Assembly (NCBI GenBank): GCA_041666325.1
Contig: JBAYHC010000003.1
Span: 95,102-159,101 of the forward strand
Direction: 5' to 3'
Source: Patescibacteria group bacterium
GTDB lineage: Bacteria; Patescibacteriota; UBA1384; XYA2-FULL-43-10; 1-14-0-10-43-13
Length of the DNA: 64,000 bases
The position numbers and the translations under genes are program-made. A model generated the notes under the pieces. The model saw only the letters and a list, made by a program, of their open reading frames with translations, was not told where the DNA came from and did no database searches. Of this stretch, positions 3,153 to 31,630 are shown in pieces (within the stretch, counting starts at the first letter, position 1; the number at the start of each line of letters is the position of its first letter).

Positions 3153-5509
3153 TTATAAGACAGCTTTATCGAATTAAGACTGGGATCAAGAAGGCGAAAT
3201 TTCCAATAAACATGGTTGGTTTCATTTGTCTGACGAATAATTCTCAGCTTGGCAGCATCGTTTGGAACGGAATTATTAATTGTACCTATTTGACAAGAGG
3301 CACCAGAAATAAGTGGATTTGTCGCCAAAATATAGTCCCGAACCTCGGTATCTATCCCGGCTACCAAATTAGAGACGGTTAGCTCGACGGTAATGACATC
3401 ATTCGCCTGGAGTGAATACGGGTTGAAGCCAAGGCCTGTCCCCGGCCTATCGTATGGCACTAAAACTTTACTTATAGTCACAGCTGGCTGGCTTAACTTT
3501 TTGATTATTATCCGACCCCCGCCTCCTCCTCCACCAGTATTTTCACCACCGGCAGCGCCATTCGCCTCAATACCAACTGGAGTATGTATGTCAGAAAGAA
3601 TGTAACCATATTGACCACCAGATAGTCCGTTCGAAGTGGCGACTGCATTGGCTTTGTTTGACGGCATTTGGTATTGGCTTGCCTCAAGCCAAATCATGCC
3701 GCCCGATCCGCCGCCAGACCACCCGGGCATATCATCACAGTCCGTTGCAGCACCGAGCCAGCTATCGTGGCAATCCCGTCCATTCACTCTGCCACCACCA
3801 GTACCATTTGCCTGAATCACAGACCCGTCATTCAAGACTATCCTCGCGGCCCGAAAATGGATTCTTCCCCCTCCAGCGCCACCAGAGGTTCTACCGTCAG
3901 CGCCTCCATCACGTCCCACAACCCAAACTCCACCACCACCGGACCCGAAGTGGAATTGATTCGCATCATATGTTGAGTAGCTTGTTGTCGCAGGATAAAT
4001 CTTACCGTTTGTACATGTTGTTGACCCATCGGCGCAACCGTTGGACCCACCGACCCCGCCAAAACCACCGCCACCGGAAATCTGATCCCTAGCAGCTGCA
4101 TATTTTCCTACGCCCCCTCCCGGACCGCAGCCACCATTTCCATTTATGCCACCCGGTCCACCGGAAGCATTGGCAGTAACCTTGCCATTGCTCTCAAGTA
4201 TAAGGTCTGTATCTAGCTCAATATTGATGCCCTGGTTGCCGCTACCGTTATTCCATGACGAACAATCCGTCAAAGCAGAATTAGTCCACTGATAAAGCTC
4301 ACCGTTGTTTCGAATGGTTAAGCTCTTGTATCTGACGGGAGTAGTTCCGTTGGCAACCCAGACGCGCTTGTTGTCAATAATCACATCTTTGCCCACACAC
4401 GAAGGCGGGATCCAGTCATTAGTACTGCTGCTTGTTATGGTACAGAGCTGAGTTACGCTATTAAACTCCAAGCGGATTCTGCCACCGCCACCGCCACCGC
4501 CACGAGCATTGTTATCAACCGTGTTGCCACCCTTGGCCTGAATATTGCTACCATAATTTCTTTCTGTCGAGATTCCGCCATAAGATACTGTGGCCGATTC
4601 CCCATCATTCCCCCCATCTCCACCGCTTGCATTAGGCGATAATCCAGCATTGATTTCTGTTATCAGGGCACTTGCAGTAAGCCAAACAGTTCCGCCTGCG
4701 CCACCACCACCGCTTGCCCGATAATCAGCTGTGCCATCACCACCATTGGCGGTAATTGATGAGGTAGAGTCAATAGCGATTGTACCAGCAGTAACGCGGA
4801 TAATTCCACCGCCAGCTCCACCCCAACCAATACGATTGTTGTTGCGACGACGGGCTGTTCCCCCGCCGGAACCGTGCTGAAACGGAGCGTCAGCAAGTCC
4901 ATACTCGCCGCCGCCTGGATTGCTCCCATCTCCACCTTCACCACCATAACCGCCGCCGCCGCCGGAGGTACCCGACTCGTAGATGCTATACCCCTGCCCA
5001 CCGCCTGGGCCCCAACCATCACACGCCGTCTCGCGATTATGCGCTGCTTCCGCACAGTCTATTTCACCGCCAGGGAAACCCTTGGCATCCGCATTAATCT
5101 TTGCATTATTTTCGAGCTTTAAATCTTGAGTAACCGTAATTTCGATCTTTTTTCCAGAGCCAGACGCTGTTATATTGCCATCATAATTGGTGTCTGTTCT
5201 GCGAACTAGTGGATCATGAACAAGCTTTCCGTTGTTCTTGATTGTTAGGTTCCTAAATGTATGAGGACCCGTAATCGTAACGATGACTCCATCAATAATA
5301 ACATCGTCATTTGAGTAATCGGTAGTGGTACCCATGGTCCTGTTGCCGGCAGGAGTGGTTGAGTCAAAGGTCGTCGCCTTTGTTTGTGTTGGGTTCTTGA
5401 CTACCAGTATTTGAGACAAAAATACTACAACCAAAGCCGAGGCCAAAACCGTCAACAGACGTATCTTGAACCTGAGATCTAGTGCTCGCGAAATTGAGTG
5501 CTTTGACAT
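3131..5509 (-). CDS. large glycine-rich cell-surface protein with beta-helix repeats and a DUF11-like C-terminal domain
   Basis: 792 aa starting at MSKHSIS, preceded by a GAGGGG RBS. It has an N-terminal TM/signal segment and many ITA(N/S)G...GGxGG repeats. The C-terminus resembles a conserved-repeat (DUF11) domain. Antisense frames are open only because of Gly-codon periodicity. Confidence 0.6.
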   Translation of the reverse strand: MSKHSISRALDLRFKIRLLTVLASALVVVFLSQILVVKNPTQTKATTFDSTTPAGNRTMGTTTDYSNDDVIIDGVIVTITGPHTFRNLTIKNNGKLVHDPLVRRTDTNYDGNITASGSGKKIEITVTQDLKLENNAKINADAKGFPGGEIDCAEAAHNRETACDGWGPGGGQGYSIYESGTSGGGGGYGGEGGDGSNPGGGEYGLADAPFQHGSGGGTARRRNNNRIGWGGAGGGIIRVTAGTIAIDSTSSITANGGDGTADYRASGGGGAGGTVWLTASALITEINAGLSPNASGGDGGNDGESATVSYGGISTERNYGSNIQAKGGNTVDNNARGGGGGGGRIRLEFNSVTQLCTITSSSTNDWIPPSCVGKDVIIDNKRVWVANGTTPVRYKSLTIRNNGELYQWTNSALTDCSSWNNGSGNQGINIELDTDLILESNGKVTANASGGPGGINGNGGCGPGGGVGKYAAARDQISGGGGFGGVGGSNGCADGSTTCTNGKIYPATTSYSTYDANQFHFGSGGGGVWVVGRDGGADGRTSGGAGGGRIHFRAARIVLNDGSVIQANGTGGGRVNGRDCHDSWLGAATDCDDMPGWSGGGSGGMIWLEASQYQMPSNKANAVATSNGLSGGQYGYILSDIHTPVGIEANGAAGGENTGGGGGGGRIIIKKLSQPAVTISKVLVPYDRPGTGLGFNPYSLQANDVITVELTVSNLVAGIDTEVRDYILATNPLISGASCQIGTINNSVPNDAAKLRIIRQTNETNHVYWKFRLLDPSLNSIKLSYNCTVTRN

Positions 5510-18433: not shown

Positions 18434-19120
18434 TTAGACCTGTTTCATCGCTTCCATGCTGCTCAACTGACCACGCATAGTTGCGATTGCCTGTTCTCTT
18501 AGTGCCACTCTTTGCTGCATAACCTCAAGCATCTTAGTGTCTGAAGCTAGCTTTGTCTCTTCCTTGGTAATCTGTTCCAACATTTCGTGAATTTTTTTGC
18601 CTATTGCACCATCATTAAATCTTCGAATCAGACCGGTTCGAACTTCCCGGCCGGTATCGCAAGCACGATTGAAACGCTCGGTTCCCCAATCAACGGCATC
18701 GTCTTTAACTTCGACAGCTCTATTATAGCCATCAACCAATGTTCTACCAGCTTCCTGTGCTACAGCGACAGTTGTCTCTTTAACTAGCTTCACGTCTTCT
18801 ACTGCCTGTTCTTTTAGATCCAGGCCGATTTCCTTGCCAAGAGCCACAGTTTCTGCTGCTAAATTTTTTGCTGCCTGGTCTGCACCGAGCACGCCATCGA
18901 TTGCTTTTCCTCCGGCATCAACAGTTAAGCCACCAAGAAATCGTAAACCTTTTCCGACCTTTCTTGCCGCACCAGAAAACCTATTGCTAAGCCAACCTTT
19001 TGCCTGTTCGTACTGCTGGCCCACAATTTCTTTAGCTCCCTCAACCTGCCGCCCCAGAGCTTCCTTTCGCTCTCTTCCAACTTCGCTTGCAGCCCTTCGA
19101 TCTACAGATATCTCAGCCAT
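18434..19120 (-). CDS. hypothetical coiled-coil protein
   Basis: 228 aa, Ala/Glu/Lys-rich, helical; no catalytic motif. Confidence 0.5.
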   Translation of the reverse strand: MAEISVDRRAASEVGRERKEALGRQVEGAKEIVGQQYEQAKGWLSNRFSGAARKVGKGLRFLGGLTVDAGGKAIDGVLGADQAAKNLAAETVALGKEIGLDLKEQAVEDVKLVKETTVAVAQEAGRTLVDGYNRAVEVKDDAVDWGTERFNRACDTGREVRTGLIRRFNDGAIGKKIHEMLEQITKEETKLASDTKMLEVMQQRVALREQAIATMRGQLSSMEAMKQV

Positions 19121-19308
19121 CGATCCTCCTAGATTAATATCTTTCTCATGTAATAAATTATGGCCTAATTATTGTAGCAATAATTTATTTTGTCAATGTG
19201 GATAACTCAAATTGTCCTAATCAGCTTCAAGCGGTCCACGAAATGGTTATTCAGATTTTGTTGGTAATCCAAAAGAAGATTAAAAATACATGTCTAATCC
19301 ATCGCCTG

Positions 19309-20037
19309 TTATCTGGTTCGAAAAGCCTGAGCATGAGTACGCTGCTTTTCTTCGGCCTGCATTGCCAGATCACGGTAATCTTTGTTGTCAATATCGAGGA
19401 CTGTTGCCCGCTTCAACGCTTTTGCTGCCTTTGCAAATTGTCTCACCTCCATGAAAGCGCGACCTAGCGCCGCATGCCAAGCAGATTGGCTTCGATCAAG
19501 AATAACTGCTTTCTGCAAATGCTCTATTGCTTGAGTAAAATCTTCGCTACGAAGCTCAATTTCACCCAAGCCAAAGTATGCTTCGCCCAATTCATCGTTA
19601 CTCTTGATTGCCGTCTTGTATGCCTCTTTGGCATCCTCAAAATGGCCTCGCAGAGACGCGACTCTACCGATAACAACATAAGCCTGAGCACTGCGCTTAT
19701 CTTTTTTTAATGCCTCCAAGGCCAAATCTTCAGCCGCCCGTAGGTCGTCTGAATCAAGGGCCTGGTCAGCCTCAAATAAAATTCTCGCAAGCTCAGGATC
19801 AAGCTCCATAAATCTTTTTTGAGCCTCATTGATGTCGCGGGGCGGAACAATATTATCCTGACCCTTGACGATCTCTTCCTGAATTTTTTCCAGTTCCTTT
19901 TCCCGTTTCTTGGCAAATCTACCCCAAAAAGAGACTGCCGGTTTGTCAGCAACCACTTCTGTGCCTGTTCGGGGGAAGTTACGCAACATCAAGAACAAGG
20001 CAAAGGCCAAACAAATTATGATCAGAATTTCTAGCAA
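19309..20037 (-). CDS. TPR-repeat protein with N-terminal membrane anchor
   Basis: N-terminal TM (MLEILIIICLAFALFLML) followed by several 34-aa TPR-like repeats (AYFGLGEIELRSEDFTQAIEHLQKAVILD etc.). Confidence 0.7.
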   Translation of the reverse strand: MLEILIIICLAFALFLMLRNFPRTGTEVVADKPAVSFWGRFAKKREKELEKIQEEIVKGQDNIVPPRDINEAQKRFMELDPELARILFEADQALDSDDLRAAEDLALEALKKDKRSAQAYVVIGRVASLRGHFEDAKEAYKTAIKSNDELGEAYFGLGEIELRSEDFTQAIEHLQKAVILDRSQSAWHAALGRAFMEVRQFAKAAKALKRATVLDIDNKDYRDLAMQAEEKQRTHAQAFRTR

Positions 20038-20088
20038 GTTTACTCCAAGCCCACTTCTGGTGATTTAAAACATATCAAGCACTTAATT

Positions 20089-20787
20089 TTACCACACTTT
20101 TTCCAATGAAAGAACCAGGTCCTCTAACGCAAGACGTGCATTGGCGTTACCATCAATTGCTCGACGGCACTGGTGCAGCAAGATCATTGCTTCGGCGTAT
20201 TTTGCTTCTTTTTTTTCAAGCAACTGCTGACGCAGATAACTTTCGATCGATTCTAGCAAAGCTTTTGTCTTGCCATCTTTTGTCATATCACCAATTGTTT
20301 TAGAGGCTAGCGCAAAGCCACCTTTTATCCACTCGATTGATATTGATTCTACAGACTCATTGTCTGCACCGGAATCAATGCGCGAGACTCTGCAACGCGA
20401 AATAATAGTGGGCAAAACTGCAGAGTTAGCAGAAAATAGAATGAAAGTCGCCCCTCGTGGCGGTTCTTCCAAAGTTTTTAGAAGAATATTGGCCGATGAA
20501 TCATTTAGCTTTTCACAGTCGTGTATGACTGCCAGTCTCCCGCCTCCCTGTGGGGACAGATTGATCTCATGGATAAGTCTGCGGACGTCTTCAACTTTTA
20601 TCTCTCCACTCTTGCCGGTATCAGAAGATGGCGCAACAACAGAAATATCCTCTGATAGTATTCCCTTACTTTCAGTAAAGTAGCCAACCAGCTTTTCGTT
20701 TTCCTGGTCCTTCCCGCCTATAAACAAATAGGCATGAGACCAGGAATTTTGCTTGGCATCATTCTCTAGAACCTCTTCTGCTTTCAT
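20089..20787 (-). CDS. holB: DNA polymerase III delta-prime subunit
   Basis: Hallmark motif NILLKTLEEPP plus HAYLFIGG and SRCRV blocks. Start placed at the internal MKAEEV. Confidence 0.75.
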   Translation of the reverse strand: MKAEEVLENDAKQNSWSHAYLFIGGKDQENEKLVGYFTESKGILSEDISVVAPSSDTGKSGEIKVEDVRRLIHEINLSPQGGGRLAVIHDCEKLNDSSANILLKTLEEPPRGATFILFSANSAVLPTIISRCRVSRIDSGADNESVESISIEWIKGGFALASKTIGDMTKDGKTKALLESIESYLRQQLLEKKEAKYAEAMILLHQCRRAIDGNANARLALEDLVLSLEKVW

Positions 20788-20924
20788 CACCCACACTCTA
20801 GCAAACACACCCGAAATTGACAAGAGAAAAACAGGCGGGTAAATTAATAATGAATACGATCGAAAATTGTATAATCCAGACACTAAAGCCCGGGATCTAG
20901 CTTTTACTAACAGAAAGAAGTCAA

Positions 20925-26089: not shown

Positions 26090-27148
26090 CTATACGGCCA
26101 GAACTATTTCCTCCCATGGCAATCCGGCCTTGCCGAAGTGACCATAAGCTGCCGTTTGCTGGAAGATGGGCTGACGCAAATTTAACTTTTCAATAATTTT
26201 GCCTGGACGAAAATCAAAGTGCTTTTTGACCTCCTCTGCCAGACTCTCGCCCTTTTCATTGATGGCTTCGATCATCAGGGGTTCGGCCCGACCGATAGCA
26301 TAAGCCACGGAAACAAGACACTCTTTGGCCAGTCCGGCAGCCACAAGATTCTTGGCAACGAAACGCGCCATATAAGCAGCAGAGCGATCAACTTTGGTCG
26401 CGTCTTTGCCTGAGAAAGCCCCTCCGCCATGCGGTGCCAATCCACCGTATGTGTCAACCATGATCTTTCGACCTGTTAATCCTGTGTCAGCATAGAATCC
26501 GCCCTGAACAAATCGTCCGGTTGGGTTGACCAAAATCTCAACACCCTCCAAATCCTTGATAACCGGCTTGATCAGGTGCTCGACAATCTTCTCCCTGATC
26601 TCTTCCTGGGAAACGTCCTCGTCATGCTGAGTACTGACGAGCACCGAGGCAATCTTACCATCTTGCATCGTTACCTGGGTTTTGCCATCCGGACGAAGCC
26701 ACTTCATCTCCGGATGAGTTCGGCGCAAGTTCTCAAGCTCGGAAGCAAGCTTCTGAGCATACATAACCGCATCAGGCAGATAAGCATCATTGTCATTACA
26801 GGCATAACCATACATAATACCCTGATCTCCCGCTCCGCCCGTGTCCACGCCCTGAGCAATGTCAGGGGATTGTTGAACTACCTTGGTGATGATCTCCAGG
26901 TCATCGTTGTGACCGATCTCCTTGTAAACCTTTCTTGCGATCTTGGCGAAGTCAACTTTGGCATCGGATGTCAGCTCACCACCAATTACCAGCAATCCGT
27001 GCCCGCCGAACGTCTCGATTGCTACGCGGCTTCGCGGATCCTGGCGCAAACACTCGTCCAGAATTGCGTCGGAAATCTGGTCGCAAATCTTATCGGGATG
27101 ACCCGAAGTCACACTCTCCGCTGTCACAATCTTCGACTTGTGGAACAT
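26090..27148 (-). CDS. metK: S-adenosylmethionine synthetase
   Basis: GHPDKICDQISDAILD, GGGAFSGKDATKVDRSAAY and DTYGG signatures; 352 aa. Confidence 0.95.
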   Translation of the reverse strand: MFHKSKIVTAESVTSGHPDKICDQISDAILDECLRQDPRSRVAIETFGGHGLLVIGGELTSDAKVDFAKIARKVYKEIGHNDDLEIITKVVQQSPDIAQGVDTGGAGDQGIMYGYACNDNDAYLPDAVMYAQKLASELENLRRTHPEMKWLRPDGKTQVTMQDGKIASVLVSTQHDEDVSQEEIREKIVEHLIKPVIKDLEGVEILVNPTGRFVQGGFYADTGLTGRKIMVDTYGGLAPHGGGAFSGKDATKVDRSAAYMARFVAKNLVAAGLAKECLVSVAYAIGRAEPLMIEAINEKGESLAEEVKKHFDFRPGKIIEKLNLRQPIFQQTAAYGHFGKAGLPWEEIVLAV

Positions 27149-27231
27149 GTTTCTCCTTCCTATTAATAAAAAATTTTAATTAGTCGGCTAATCCGTTCTC
27201 AGCCTGGTATATTGCCCAGCCGTGCCGATAA

Positions 27232-27255
27232 CAAAAAACTCTCCACAAAGGAGAG
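27232..27255 (-). terminator. attenuator terminator of the metK leader
   Basis: Minus-strand sense GCUCUCCUUUGUGGAGAGUUUUUUG, lying between the riboswitch aptamer and the metK start. Confidence 0.6.
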
Positions 27256-27259
27256 CATA

Positions 27260-27402
27260 CTTATGCGGCATCTTTCCTTTGCGACCCCCGATTTGTCGGG
27301 GTAAAGGCTAGAGTTGGCACCCACACTTCTCGTCTCGCCAGAGGCGGAACAGACAGGGTTGTCGGCAGTTAATAGCGGGCTAGTTCCCGCCCCGCATAGC
27401 CC
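27260..27402 (-). promoter_or_regulatory. SAM-I (S-box) riboswitch aptamer upstream of metK (putative)
   Basis: Minus-strand sense contains, in order, CUAUGCGG (P1 5'), GGCGGGAAC...AGCCC (kink-turn/P2), GCCGACAACC (~GCAACC), GGGUGCCAACUCUAGCC (~GGUGCCAAUUCCAGCAG), the P4 hairpin CCCCGACAAAUCGGGG and AAAGAUGCCGCAUAAG (P1 3'). The order matches RF00162. Confidence 0.5.
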
Positions 27403-27744
27403 ATTCGGGCGACGTGGGGTCACTGCTCTCTTGATACTATTTTGTTGTCTAAACCATCATAGCGGCCTTAGCCCGCATGATCAATCCCCTTGCTGTGGAT
27501 AACGAGGATTGAGCTCAAGTTACACGCCCGTGAATCCGGAAACTACTTTAGTCCCCAATTGTCATTCTGATCCGCCAGCTGGCCATGTACCGTTCTGGTG
27601 CGTGGCTGGCGGAGAAAAATCCAGATCACAAAGTGATCGAAACTATTTGTGCGCTGCGCTAGATTCTTCACTTCACTTGTTCAGAATGACAGAAGAAAAA
27701 TGAACAAAGCACAAATTGAATTAGTTTTAAGATTCACACGCTAT

Positions 27745-27773
27745 TTGACATTTTTACATAAATATGATATAAT
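27745..27773 (+). promoter_or_regulatory. perfect-consensus sigma70 promoter (TTGACA-N17-TATAAT)
   Basis: TTGACA at 27745-27750, a 17-nt spacer, and TATAAT at 27768-27773. It precedes the GC-rich gene at 27898. Confidence 0.6.
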
Positions 27774-27897
27774 GCACGCATGTTCGGAGTAGTCAGGGGC
27801 GTCCATGACGCGCTCTGGCATCCCGCCCATGGCGGGAACGTGAGCCTGGGGAGGCTGTCCAAAACATACCCACCCCCGATCCGTATCGGGGCGGAGA

Positions 27898-28707
27898 ATG
27901 GAAATGTCAAGAGTCGCAAACGTCGGAACAATCGAGTGGACAACTGGTGTTATCTTCGAGAAGGACAGGCTGAAGTCGCACATCGCCGCCCTCGCGGCTA
28001 CTTGCAGCGACAACGTGCCAGAAGTGATGGCAAGGTATCGCGATGAAGCGATTCGGGAATTGAGCCAAGACCTGCTGCCGCTCCGCATCTTCGTCCGCCT
28101 TGACCAGCCAGTCCCGGATGATCAGTTCCCCGGGATTTGGACGGAAGATGACGGCTCGCGTCTCTGGGTCGCCAACGGACAAAGCCCTCACGATGGGCAG
28201 CAAGTCCATCCCTTCTTGTACATCCTGCGTGGGCTTGCGCGCTGGAGCGGCCACGCAGTACAGATCAGCCTGTCCCAGTTCGGCCATGCGGCCTACGTCA
28301 CGTTCATCTCGAACGAAGACATCAGGCAACCGTCCGCCTACCTCAACGCCCTGGCCAGCAAGATGGCACGCTGGGCCGCCGAGGGTCGGTGGGAGATCCT
28401 CAACGACTACACTCGCCAGAAGGTCGAGGCCATACTCGCTGACCTGGAAACGGCCGCCGGCACCATCCGTACCTTCCTCGCCATGGTCAAGTTCCTGCAG
28501 TCCCACGGCGTTAGGCCAAGTGGAGAGGCAATGAACATCCGACGGATATTGGCACTCCGGTCACCGGGTGGGTCCGCCGGACCCAGCAGCGACATCTGGG
28601 ATATTGCCAACATTTTCCAGCAGGAACAGCAGAATCTCGCCCAGGTCGTGCCGCCCGAGTTGAGGCGCGAAATGGATGCGCTGCAGAAGCGCGGCTGGCA
28701 GGAGTAG
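27898..28707 (+). CDS. hypothetical protein (269 aa, GC-rich, no recognisable domain)
   Basis: GGAG RBS (GGAGAATGGAAATG). About 60% GC, well above the flanking DNA. Bounded by the consensus promoter and a strong terminator. Confidence 0.6.
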   Translation: MEMSRVANVGTIEWTTGVIFEKDRLKSHIAALAATCSDNVPEVMARYRDEAIRELSQDLLPLRIFVRLDQPVPDDQFPGIWTEDDGSRLWVANGQSPHDGQQVHPFLYILRGLARWSGHAVQISLSQFGHAAYVTFISNEDIRQPSAYLNALASKMARWAAEGRWEILNDYTRQKVEAILADLETAAGTIRTFLAMVKFLQSHGVRPSGEAMNIRRILALRSPGGSAGPSSDIWDIANIFQQEQQNLAQVVPPELRREMDALQKRGWQE

Positions 28708-28737
28708 CGCCCCTGCCGCCACCACGTTCGACACACT

Positions 28738-28772
28738 CGCCCTGGGACCTCACGGTCCCGGGGCGGTTTTTT
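28738..28772 (+). terminator. rho-independent terminator of the 269-aa gene
   Basis: CCCTGGGACC-TCAC-GGTCCCGGGG (10-bp stem with one G-U pair) followed by CGGTTTTTTATTT. Confidence 0.7.
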
Positions 28773-28801
28773 ATTTAGAGACAAATGTTTTTTGGCACGA
28801 C

Positions 28802-28836
28802 CAAAAAAATAGGCTGCCCTTAGGAGAGCAGCCAGC
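28802..28836 (-). terminator. rho-independent terminator of the SPFH gene (minus strand)
   Basis: Minus-strand sense GGCTGCTCTCCTAAGGGCAGCC followed by TATTTTTTTGG. Confidence 0.55.
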
Positions 28837-28870
28837 CAAATGGTTAGACTTCGCTTCGTTCTGGAACATC

Positions 28871-29704
28871 TCACTTCCGGGGAATGGTGTAGTTGGTCCC
28901 ACCACCGCCGTCGTTGATGATGACGGTCACGTCCTTACCCGTCAGATCCTTGACCGTTTCCCATTTCTTGTACTCGAGGTAGCCCGGATTGGCGCGGATG
29001 GCGCGGCCCACCTTCTCTATCGCCACGACTTCAGCGTCGGCGGAGGCTTTCCTATTCTCGGCCGCCCAGAGGGACTCGTCCACCTTGACGTTGGAGAGCT
29101 GTCCCCCGATCAGCTTGAGTGGCACCTTGTTGCGTTCGAAGGTGCTGATGATCATGGCCGCGACTTCTTTGTTGATGCGGTTGTAGTTGCCCATGACCTC
29201 ATCGTAGTCACGGTATTTGGCGAAGATCTCCCTCGCCTTGCCCCGGATGGTCATCTGGGCAAACTGGTCATACACCGCCTGGAGAGTGATCGTACTGACG
29301 CGATCTTTCCCCGGCAGTGGCACAGGGGTGACCTGAGCGAAGATGCTGTCGCGCATCTTCTTGTCGTCAGGCAGCATCACCTGAATGTAGATGTCAACGG
29401 CCAAGGGCACGCGACTCTTGGTGATGATCCTATGATCCTCGGACTTCTTGGGATCAGATGACTTGGCGAACTCCTCCTTGACGGTGTAGCTCGTCGCCTC
29501 GCAGGTCACCAAGCGATTGCAACTTCCGTCAGTACTAGTCGCGCCGATCTCAGCCTGACCCGCCTCGCGGATACCGCCGTCCCACCCAGAAGGCGACAAC
29601 ACGCGACCGATATAGCCGGGCGGAATGTCCTCGACATGTCCGCAGCCAGCGAATCCCATAGCGGCCATGGCCGCAAGAACCAGAGCGAATAGCTTCCTTC
29701 TCAT
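28871..29704 (-). CDS. SPFH/band-7 domain lipoprotein (putative)
   Basis: Lipoprotein signal (LAAMAAMGFAGC). The core resembles SPFH: ...ITLQAVYDQFAQMTIRGKAREIF...EVMGNYNRINKEV...KLIGGQLSNVKVDESLWAAENRKASADAEVVAIEK. GC-rich. Confidence 0.55.
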   Translation of the reverse strand: MRRKLFALVLAAMAAMGFAGCGHVEDIPPGYIGRVLSPSGWDGGIREAGQAEIGATSTDGSCNRLVTCEATSYTVKEEFAKSSDPKKSEDHRIITKSRVPLAVDIYIQVMLPDDKKMRDSIFAQVTPVPLPGKDRVSTITLQAVYDQFAQMTIRGKAREIFAKYRDYDEVMGNYNRINKEVAAMIISTFERNKVPLKLIGGQLSNVKVDESLWAAENRKASADAEVVAIEKVGRAIRANPGYLEYKKWETVKDLTGKDVTVIINDGGGGTNYTIPRK

Positions 29705-29715
29705 TGTGTCACCTC

Positions 29716-30015
29716 TCAGTGCTTCGGCTCGGTCTTGGAATCGTTCCTCAAGATATCTGCTCTCTCGTTGGCGACGCTGCGGTCGATGACCGATTGCGGA
29801 GCCTTGTTCACGACTGCCGTCTTCACGGCATAGCCGCCGAATCCAAGGACCGCAAAGATGATCAACGTAAGGCAGACGGCTGTCGCCACCCCCCGCTCTT
29901 CGTCGGTCAGGCCACTGTTCTTGCTGCGCAAGCTTAAGCCGACCAGCACGACAACGGCGACGAACACCACAAGCCCGAAAAATGGCATCGTCAGTTGCCT
30001 GTAGATGTCTTCCAT
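29716..30015 (-). CDS. small 2-TM membrane protein (possible NfeD-like partner of the SPFH protein)
   Basis: GGAGGGAGG RBS before MEDIYRQ. Two TM helices; immediately upstream of, and co-directional with, the SPFH gene. Confidence 0.45.
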   Translation of the reverse strand: MEDIYRQLTMPFFGLVVFVAVVVLVGLSLRSKNSGLTDEERGVATAVCLTLIIFAVLGFGGYAVKTAVVNKAPQSVIDRSVANERADILRNDSKTEPKH

Positions 30016-30193
30016 GTTTCCTCCCTCCAGAGCGAAGTCAGCACCATTTTGGCATAGACACGAGTACGTTATCACAAATTGGTCATAACGTCAATAACCA
30101 CCCGCAGCGTCGTCATTGCGAGTGTTCTTGTGATGAGAGCGAATGAAAGCACTCAAGGCGGTTTTTGTATTTTCCCCTTCCGATTTCTCCCTT

Positions 30194-31630
30194 CTACCCT
30201 CTACTTTCTCCCTCGTTCTTGTAGTACTCAATCCCCTCTTCAACCGTGGAAAATTTGCCCTCGAGCTGGGCTTCGAATAGTTCGTCCAGCACTTGCCCGA
30301 AGCCCGGACCGGGCTCAAGTCCGAGTTCAATGAGATGACGCCCCATAACGAGTGGCTTGGGCTTCGTGTCTTCGAGCGAAAGCTGCTTGGCTCGTTCAAG
30401 CAATGCCTCACCCTCAGGAAAACCATGCCATGGTATGGCCCGACCGCGCCGGTCCACCTCTGACGACCAGACCAACTCCTCAATTGTGGCCGGAGCAAGC
30501 CGCAGGGCCAACCGCCGAATGGCGGCATCACTAAGATCTTTATTAAAAGCCGGATACATATGTTCGCCAGCAAGCAGGAGAACATGCTTGATCATCTCAT
30601 CAGGCAGAGAGAGAGAACGCATGAACTTCTCTGCCGGCTGGATGCCGGCCTTGGCATGACCATAAGATGTCACCTTTTCATCTTCAACCACCGTAGTTAC
30701 CGGTTTGCCCATATCGTGTGTCAGCGCAAAAAACATGAAAATCAATGACCTTTTCTCGTCAAAGTTTTTCTGTCGAATCAGCTTCGCTGCTTCATCGACG
30801 ACCATGAGCGTATGAGTCCAGACATCACCCTCCGGATGCCATCGAACCGACTGCGGAGTACCGACAAGCTCCAGGAGTTCGGGATGGAGTTTGTTGATAA
30901 TTCCCAGGTCCAGCGCAAGACTCAACCCCTTGCTCGGTTTTTCCGATTTCAGCAGCAGCTTCTTCCATTCGTCACCAATCCGTTCGGGAGACAGTTCCGA
31001 AAGCTCCAATCCTCGGCACAAATCGGCTGTCTTTGCCTCAATGCGCAAATTAAATCTTCCAACAAACTGCATCGCCCGAAGAGCTCGAAGCGGGTCATCG
31101 CCGAAGGTTTCTGGATCAGTTGCCTGCAAAACACCCTCCTCTAAATCATCAATCCCGCCATGGGCATCGATAATTTCGCCCGTCAACAGATCAAGAGCCA
31201 GGGCATTGATCGTAAAATCACGGCGCTTGGATGCTTCACTGAAGGATAAATCTGGCTCGCCGGTAATAGCAAACCCGCGATGGCCCTTGCCGATTTTAGA
31301 TTCACGGCGAGGCAAGGCAATATCGAGATCACCAAACTTGATAACGCTAAATTGCGCCCCGACAACATTGACGGGCCCCAACGGCTCGAGCAATTCCCGT
31401 ATCTTGTCGTACGCTAGCCCATAAACCTCAAGATCAATGTCCTTGGGCTCAACCGAGTAGCCAAGATCTTTGAGCAGAAGATCTCTGACATAACCACCCA
31501 CAATTAATGTCCGCCCCCCGCTCTCCGCGACTAGCTTCACCACTGCCAAAGCCATCTTGACTTGATTTTTGGTCTGAGGATCAACCGCTTGTTCAATTAA
31601 TTTATCAAAATTGATTGTATTGTTTTCCAT
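30194..31630 (-). CDS. cca: CCA-adding tRNA nucleotidyltransferase with HD domain
   Basis: Pol-beta head (LIVGGYVRDLLL...DIDLEV), RRDFTINALA motif and a C-terminal HD domain (LTHDMGK...H). 478 aa. Confidence 0.85.
   Translation of the reverse strand: MENNTINFDKLIEQAVDPQTKNQVKMALAVVKLVAESGGRTLIVGGYVRDLLLKDLGYSVEPKDIDLEVYGLAYDKIRELLEPLGPVNVVGAQFSVIKFGDLDIALPRRESKIGKGHRGFAITGEPDLSFSEASKRRDFTINALALDLLTGEIIDAHGGIDDLEEGVLQATDPETFGDDPLRALRAMQFVGRFNLRIEAKTADLCRGLELSELSPERIGDEWKKLLLKSEKPSKGLSLALDLGIINKLHPELLELVGTPQSVRWHPEGDVWTHTLMVVDEAAKLIRQKNFDEKRSLIFMFFALTHDMGKPVTTVVEDEKVTSYGHAKAGIQPAEKFMRSLSLPDEMIKHVLLLAGEHMYPAFNKDLSDAAIRRLALRLAPATIEELVWSSEVDRRGRAIPWHGFPEGEALLERAKQLSLEDTKPKPLVMGRHLIELGLEPGPGFGQVLDELFEAQLEGKFSTVEEGIEYYKNEGESRG

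Follow-up and report, generated by a model that had tools for sequence, protein, structure and literature searches.

A GC-rich island of two convergent units, probably acquired horizontally, between cca and metK of a Patescibacteria group bacterium

The DNA stretch analyzed here (the window: 64,000 nucleotides (nt) of contig JBAYHC010000003.1, in the metagenome-assembled genome (MAG) GCA_041666325.1 of a Patescibacteria group bacterium) carries a GC-rich island of three protein-coding genes between the housekeeping genes metK and cca. The island is organized as two separate transcription units and not as one operon. Unit 1, on the forward strand, encodes a protein of 267 residues. Unit 2, convergent to it on the reverse strand, encodes a small protein with two transmembrane helices (2-TM), followed by a divergent SPFH/Band-7 lipoprotein. 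The block from about 27745 to 30190 was likely acquired by horizontal transfer, as two independent, self-contained units that share one GC-rich donor or come from very similar ones. The features of the locus are as follows.

26090-27148, reverse strand: metK, with all three S-AdoMet synthetase domains (Pfam)
27745-27773, forward strand: sigma-70 promoter TTGACA-17-TATAAT with a TG extended -10, 12/12 match
27780-27903, forward strand: 5' leader RNA of about 125 nt, its 5' part with variable hairpins and its conserved core at 27839-27903 (from folds and comparison of homologs)
27893-27896, forward strand: Shine-Dalgarno sequence GGAG, part of the conserved GGCGGAGA, 7 nt before ATG 27904
27904-28707, forward strand: cytoplasmic protein of 267 residues (N-domain, residues 1-160; C-domain, residues 161-260), annotated as hypothetical protein WCT32_04240
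28737-28776, forward strand: intrinsic terminator of unit 1, 13-bp stem with 10 GC pairs and a T-run
28812-28833, reverse strand: intrinsic terminator of unit 2, 9-bp stem and T-run
28871-29704, reverse strand: divergent SPFH/Band-7 lipoprotein of 277 residues, with a signal peptide and the invariant lipobox Cys21
29716-30018, reverse strand: protein of 100 residues with two transmembrane helices, the conserved partner encoded upstream of the SPFH gene (homologous to the genes at that position in loci L006 and L002)
30019-30193, reverse strand: upstream region of unit 2 with the strong Shine-Dalgarno sequence GGAGGGAGG and, by the cca stop, the right edge of the GC-rich block (from sequence and GC profile)
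30194-31630, reverse strand: cca, with PolyA_pol head, RNA-binding and HD domains (Pfam)

Between about 27800 and 30000 the GC content is 0.56-0.63 (200-nt windows), compared with about 0.46 for the 64 kb as a whole, and the compositional step is abrupt at both edges. The excess sits almost wholly at third codon positions. The GC content at these positions (GC3) is 0.754, 0.770 and 0.772 in the three open reading frames (ORFs) of the island (27904-30018), whereas the 65 other ORFs of the window have a mean of 0.481 (standard deviation 0.051, maximum 0.62), which places the island ORFs at z = 5.3-5.7. The island is also the top tetranucleotide outlier among the 2.3-kb segments of the stretch. 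The relative synonymous codon usage (RSCU) of the forward-strand gene correlates with that of the reverse-strand pair (r = 0.75), whereas each island unit correlates with the host genes at r = 0.09-0.14 only and pairs of host genes at a mean of 0.31. A preliminary description of this DNA, made from the sequence alone, had reported the jump in GC and proposed a comparison of codon usage and k-mers with the rest of the genome; the GC profile confirms the jump, and within the window the island deviates in GC3, RSCU and tetranucleotides alike. All three ORFs show a higher GC content at the first and third codon positions than at the second (0.62/0.44/0.75 at positions 1/2/3 in the 267-residue ORF). 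This coding signature indicates that all of them are real coding regions, including the one without named homologs.

The promoter of unit 1 matches the consensus at all 12 positions, as had been noted, carries in addition the extended -10 TG, and is the sole exact match in the 64 kb, where sites with at most one mismatch number two against 0.36 expected. The second of these, TTGACA-17-CAATAAT (11/12; 19168-19196, reverse strand), lies upstream of genes by the tRNA cluster and suggests that the native strong promoters of the organism use the canonical consensus. In the preliminary description the whole island was expressed from the perfect promoter; it serves the 267-residue gene only, as the other two genes are on the opposite strand with their own Shine-Dalgarno sequence and terminator. 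The promoter had also been offered as an argument for transfer, a use of it that does not hold, because homologous cassettes carry near-consensus promoters too. In the three homologs with complete upstream DNA (L017, L021 and L058 among the fetched loci), sites matching at 10-11 of 12 positions (TTGACT-17-TATATT, TTGACA-17-TATAGT and TTGACA-18-TATATT) are found 94-169 nt before the ATG. The promoter is therefore a trait of the gene's own cassette and not independent evidence of transfer. The end of the -10 hexamer is 131 nt from the ATG, which gives the leader its length of about 125 nt, close to the 120-nt structured leader first described; its conserved hairpins and the 13-bp stem of the strong terminator likewise agree with that account. 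Terminator-like hairpins, read by eye, also follow the homologous genes in L020 and L021.

The start of the encoded protein is placed at ATG 27904, since GGAG precedes this codon by 7 nt and the alignment of the homologs starts at MSRVANVG; the length is thus likely 267 residues instead of the 269 given initially. The protein had been presented as one with no recognizable motif. It does lack any family match, but it is not a complete orphan, as it consists of two rare domains. A word-indexed search of 5.8 billion proteins (5.8e9) returned the protein itself as the sole match. An exhaustive HMMER scan of 1.84 billion cluster representatives returned 17 proteins at E <= 1e-3; once the query and one presumed repeat artefact are set aside, about 15 relatives are left. 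One group of these, of 170-185 residues, matches residues 1-160 (N-domain: MPRIANVGxVDW ... HPLF ... P(S/T)RYLxALAxKMxRWA), and a second group, of 97-141 residues, matches residues 161-260 (C-domain: YEREKIExTIxDLE ... GIE ... LRYPGxPAGPDSD). There is one further fusion of both domains (P0021) and a tandem double C-domain protein (P0024). The invariant residues of the family are W, F, L and P, and look structural rather than catalytic as judged from the alignment. With the 16-sequence alignment AlphaFold (AF2) reached a predicted local distance difference test score (pLDDT) of 79.9, compared with 45.4 for the single sequence, and the predicted model comprises an alpha/beta N-domain and a helical C-domain.

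The remote-homology and Foldseek checks suggested at the outset tied the protein to no known family or fold. Neither for it nor for any of the 16 family members was there a match below E = 0.009 in Pfam, PHROGs, PADLOC or NCBIfam, sequence-profile searches of the PDB returned no credible match, whether made with the full, the N-only or the C-only alignment, and the AF2 model matched no known fold with Foldseek, including BFVD. A scan of IMG/VR with a protein pattern for the C-domain gave no match. A relationship of the N-domain to N4-like major capsid proteins (tblastn E = 0.1) was rejected, as the hhalign probability was 0.5% and the match fell in mid-protein. The match to P0035 (2355 residues), a LapA/cadherin-repeat adhesin, was treated as the repeat artefact. 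The 267-residue gene of L006 and the DUF5671 gene of L002, both beside SPFH pairs, have no homology to the 267-residue protein.

In other genomes, too, relatives of this protein stand out from their surroundings. The C-domain gene of L015 (P0024) has a GC3 of 0.28, compared with 0.56-0.66 in its neighbors. The L058 cassette is located between a tRNA gene and a large serine recombinase, and GC3 is 0.65 in the cassette and 0.61 in the recombinase, against 0.36-0.41 in the host genes on the tRNA side. The foreign composition of these copies indicates that the families are repeatedly foreign to their hosts. At 4304-4800 of L058, the tRNA gene (4304-4374) is followed by several partial tRNA 3' ends (GGTTCGATTCCGTGTAGG-like), the N-domain cassette and the recombinase; the partial repeats resemble integration scars stacked at a single tRNA site. 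The P0024 gene (L015 1451-2194, L016 2771-3514) adjoins an opposite-strand gene for a 771-residue SMC/AAA_15/AAA_23-type ATPase. Unit 1 is best read as a moron-like cassette made of a consensus promoter, a structured leader, a canonical Shine-Dalgarno sequence, a soluble 267-residue protein and a terminator, in which promoter and leader travel together with the N-domain gene.

The leader was compared among the window and L017, L020, L021 and L058, which are all the fetched loci encoding an N-domain (n = 5). The elements of its core are, in the window, the following.

27842-27857, forward strand: hairpin P1, GAGCC/GGCTG, with the G-rich loop TGGGGA (GCGGGGA in three homologs); 2/5 pairs change on both sides and 96% of alignment cells are paired
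27862-27873, forward strand: single-stranded AAACATA and CCCAC, columns invariant in 5/5
27874-27891, forward strand: hairpin P2, CCCCGAT/ATCGGGG, with the loop CCGT, directly 5' of the Shine-Dalgarno sequence; both sides differ in 4/7 pairs, with 100% of cells paired

The order of these elements is the same in all five leaders: hairpin P1 (GAGCU[GCGGGGA]AGCUC), AAACAUA, (U/A)CCCAC, P2, GGCGGAGA, a spacer of 6-7 nt and AUG. As many as 29 of the 77 core columns are invariant, while the encoded proteins are only 25-34% identical. With P1, P2 and a pseudoknot between the P1 loop and UCCC, 98.6% of the cells pair, compared with about 50% when the partner is slid by 1-3 columns. Both sides change in 7 of the 16 pairs (two of them belong to P1, four to P2 and one to the pseudoknot, where U to A in L020 is matched by A to U in the loop), and none of 500 shuffles reached the observed score. 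The minimum free energy folds of all five leaders have the C-run 5' of P2 base-paired to G's in the Shine-Dalgarno region. A covariance model (R1) scores the five leaders at 44-65 bits, and its only other matches in 429 kb, a search space that takes in the remainder of the window, are pattern-selected noise. At E <= 10, no Rfam 15 family hits the leader of the window, L020, L021 or L058 (L017 was outside this search), and genes encoding only a C-domain have no such leader. A long-range helix of the 5' AUGUU with AACAU was discarded, as it is predicted for the window copy only and is inconsistent across the homologs.

With helices backed by compensatory changes in five hand-aligned sequences, the leader appears to be a structured cis-regulatory RNA, and it is probably a translational control element. 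Because the C-run is able to pair either with the Shine-Dalgarno sequence or with the P1 loop, a translational switch is proposed as a hypothesis, from five sequences and one pseudoknot covariation. Pairing of the C-run with the Shine-Dalgarno G's would be the off state and its pairing with the P1 loop, as a pseudoknot, the on state; candidate triggers are the encoded protein itself or a small ligand. It is conceivable, although we regard it as rather doubtful, that the cassette is an undescribed mobile unit and its core of about 65 nt a new class of translational switch (pseudoknot versus Shine-Dalgarno sequestration) that responds to a new-fold protein or a small molecule. If true, this would explain why the passage of the cassette between distant bacterial hosts has left the RNA far more conserved than the protein. 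Several points temper the evidence on the leader. The alignment (A5) was fitted by hand to the structure and holds five sequences only, a single compensatory change speaks for the pseudoknot, and the pairing of the C-run with the Shine-Dalgarno sequence involves invariant bases, so that covariation cannot test it. The thermodynamic z-scores of the leaders are modest (-0.7 to -2.3). Finally, pattern scans for more leaders gave 3 and 0 matches in IMG/VR and 33 in JGI metagenome contigs, all of them noise, with neither P1 nor an N-domain ORF.

The modest z-scores would also suit a leader that does not switch, namely a constitutive 5' stabilizer or translation enhancer, or a DNA site carried along by the cassette and used in recombination or operator binding. 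The variable P2 loops and the lack of a known ligand-type gene association would fit as well, and a DNA site is conceivable in a mobile cassette. We nevertheless consider this unlikely, as the core keeps a fixed register to the Shine-Dalgarno sequence and the ATG (6-7 nt apart in 5/5) and is located 60-130 nt downstream of the promoter, where an operator would be unusual, and as covarying stems together with 12 invariant single-stranded bases and an invariant P1 loop are more than a stabilizing hairpin needs.

Regarding unit 2, the small membrane protein starts at ATG 30018, preceded by GGAGGGAGG, and has 100 residues; the earlier start at GTG 30075 is abandoned. No strong promoter was found at 30019-30193. 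The second protein had been called an SPFH/band-7 lipoprotein, which stands at the level of the family: the window copy itself scores 17.6 bits against Band_7 (PF01145; E = 0.0043), below the Pfam cut-off of 23.6, but 16 of 18 aligned family members match Band_7 at E <= 0.01 (best E = 1.3e-11), so its membership holds by transitivity. Its N-terminus is MRRKLFALVLAAMAAMGFAGC, and Cys21 is invariant in 18/18 homologs with the consensus LTGC, as read from the sequences. The 19 homologs, at 43-59% identity, come from metagenomes and from MAGs of the candidate phyla radiation (CPR) labeled Parcubacteria, Saccharibacteria and Berkelbacteria. A 2-TM homolog is directly upstream of the SPFH gene in all fetched loci except L013, which has no partner match. 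The neighbors of the pair vary (leuS and DUF5671 in L002, a holin-like gene in L006), and the same pair is present, at 42% identity, in the AT-rich genome of a 642-kb uncultured phage (LR756502.1; L060 4614-5807), with a GC3 of 0.23. The recurrence of the pair in differing contexts and in a phage indicates a conserved module that moves between genomes. By analogy with other SPFH proteins, the pair, whose lipoprotein would be extracytoplasmic, probably scaffolds the outer face of the cell membrane. A literature search on SPFH proteins in Patescibacteria or phages found nothing relevant.

Two of the SPFH loci have peculiarities of their own. In a Berkelbacteria MAG (VFKW01000107.1; L014 520-3038) an insertion of about 1.5 kb interrupts the SPFH gene and encodes a 497-residue product, which we take to be a putative transposase, and a coding segment of about 25 residues is duplicated at both ends of the insertion. 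In two MAGs of the same study, one labeled Saccharibacteria (L011) and the other Gammaproteobacteria (L012), the SPFH segment is the same in identity, coordinates and E-value, an agreement that may reflect a binning inconsistency.

The adjacency, common origin and convergent arrangement of the genes could mean that the 267-residue, 2-TM and SPFH proteins form one functional system, for example a membrane-associated defense or stress module. SPFH proteins are seen in some defense contexts, and there is a weak PADLOC match to PDC-M16B (E = 0.004). Such cooperation is improbable, however, given that the two units do not occur together elsewhere: an N- or C-domain protein is encoded at 0 of 11 other SPFH loci, an SPFH or 2-TM protein at 0 of 8 other N- or C-domain loci, and the phage copy of the pair also stands without an N- or C-domain protein. 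The units also have separate promoters or Shine-Dalgarno sequences and separate terminators. The lack of co-occurrence means that the adjacency is best read as shared arrival, backed by the common codon dialect, and not as shared function, and we infer that the two units arrived jointly.

Very improbable, too, is a native origin of the three genes, with high GC3 produced by selection (codon adaptation for high expression, or mRNA stability). The strong promoter does imply high expression, and SPFH pairs at other CPR loci also tend to have a GC3 above the GC content of their locus. The same deviant dialect, however, is common to the three genes, which occupy both strands and form two transcription units. 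Elsewhere, relatives of both units differ in composition from their hosts, in either direction, one of them being an AT-rich copy in a GC-rich host. The unannotated ORFs at 18434-20883, by the tRNA cluster and downstream of the second-best promoter of the window, are presumably highly expressed genes of the ribosomal-protein type, and their GC3 is only 0.38-0.44; expression-linked codon bias is therefore no explanation for the jump in GC3.

Both junctions of the island are spanned by a separately assembled JGI contig (Ga0376277_0001883; L001, 79.5 kb), which is 99.995% identical to the window over 20.8 kb, with one indel, and collinear through cca, the 2-TM gene, the SPFH gene, the ORF first listed as 269 residues, and metK. 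Although metagenome-assembled genomes are prone to false joins and the composition steps abruptly at either edge, a GC-rich block of another organism joined in by the assembler can hardly be entertained, since the second assembly reproduces both junctions, both edges are intergenic with the host-side signals intact (cca stop, metK leader) and a 2.3-kb insert between parts of the same genome needs two chimeric joins. A chimera had been named as the less likely reading at the outset.

Horizontal acquisition, the reading favored from the start, is upheld by the composition, the shared codon dialect and the varied contexts of the relatives; the consensus promoter drops out of the argument, and the term "recent" cannot be given a date. 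The transfer as such is ordinary horizontal transfer. A number of points speak against this reading and temper it. L001 perhaps derives from the same sample as the MAG, whose contig is 687 kb, and is then not fully independent, which leaves a slight doubt over the chimera as well. The insertion is deduced from composition alone. There is no integrase or transposase in or beside the island, no tRNA gene within about 10 kb of it, and no convincing flanking direct repeats or att sites, the best being a 19-mer at 79% identity. The closest SPFH relative is 59% identical and the closest relative of the 267-residue protein 31%, and no donor was identified. Pfam gave no mobility domain in the three island proteins, cca or metK (other neighbors were judged by the precomputed Pfam labels of L001), and the classical features of a genomic island or integrative element (recombinase, tRNA-adjacent site, direct repeats) were not found in the window, but only around the homologous cassette of L058.

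Some further sequence features were observed around the edges. The 9-mer CACAAATTG, seen by eye, occurs by both of them and could be due to chance. Nested inverted repeats are present at 27560-27691, in the spacer that separates the promoter of the island from the metK leader; one pair is exact over 11 nt (TGTCATTCTGA/TCAGAATGACA) and another matches at 81% over 16 nt. A small terminator-like hairpin (27638-27624, reverse strand) lies there as well.

The island had been placed right beside a metK riboswitch and cca. Both genes are confirmed, whereas the riboswitch matches no Rfam family even at E <= 10, and SAM-I (RF00162) and related SAM models gave no match at that threshold in a 3.1-kb or a 231-nt search around the metK leader. 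This leader (27230-27484, reverse strand) has a promoter-like site at 27484-27456 and a terminator-like hairpin with a U-run at 27256-27238, about 90 nt before the metK ATG. SAM-I-like boxes (GUAUCAAGAGAG, GACAACC, GGGUGCCAAC and AAAGAUGC) can be read by eye, plus extra inserted hairpins. The leader is possibly a Patescibacteria riboswitch of a divergent SAM-I type.

For Patescibacteria, whose genomes are small and streamlined, the horizontal uptake of single cassettes is poorly documented, and the island is a clean example in which the expression signals are intact. The unit 1 cassette suggests a portable expression module (promoter, leader, Shine-Dalgarno sequence and terminator) that works across very different hosts. 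Its leader is a candidate new cis-regulatory RNA and offers a testable handle of 130 nt on a family without known relatives or fold. The occurrence of the 2-TM/SPFH pair in CPR bacteria as well as in a 642-kb phage hints that a membrane function passes between such bacteria and giant phages. Most deserving of further study are the conserved leader RNA and the unnamed two-domain family, on a thin base of five leaders and about 15 proteins.

Among known systems, the phage morons of Hendrix and colleagues are reportedly autonomous promoter-gene-terminator units of deviant base composition in lambdoid prophages. Unit 1 resembles them in its own near-consensus promoter and terminator, its single ORF and a composition unlike that of its flanks, and the homologous L058 cassette is located at the tRNA-proximal end of an integrated element, by the recombinase. 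Unlike morons, unit 1 has no prophage or mobile-element backbone around it in the window, its host is a CPR bacterium, and it carries a conserved structured leader, which is not a moron feature.

Unit 2 is comparable to the NfeD-stomatin and QmcA-YbbJ operons and to HflK/C, in that a small membrane protein precedes an SPFH protein and the family matches Band_7. It differs from the NfeD-SPFH operons in its partner, which has 100 residues, two transmembrane helices and no NfeD match (Pfam, E <= 0.1), and in an SPFH protein that is anchored by a lipobox cysteine instead of a transmembrane helix, is very divergent and is also phage-borne. The lipoprotein is also similar to phrog_200 ("lipoprotein"; E = 1.7e-13), of large Aeromonas, Acidovorax and Pseudomonas pf16-like phages, with 21-25% identity to phage hypothetical or lipoprotein genes. 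This similarity is distant, however, and only the 642-kb phage has a close copy (42%) plus the 2-TM partner.

Finally, the unit 1 leader shares several traits with the leaders that sequester the Shine-Dalgarno sequence through H-type pseudoknots (preQ1-II, SAM-II/V and NAD+-II): it is short, abuts the Shine-Dalgarno sequence, and has invariant single-stranded C-rich and A-rich segments, a possible pseudoknot between a loop and downstream sequence, and an alternative pairing with the Shine-Dalgarno sequence. It differs from them in having no Rfam match (four leaders searched) or known ligand and a single pseudoknot covariation. As it is seen only before one gene family, autoregulation fits at least as well as metabolite sensing.

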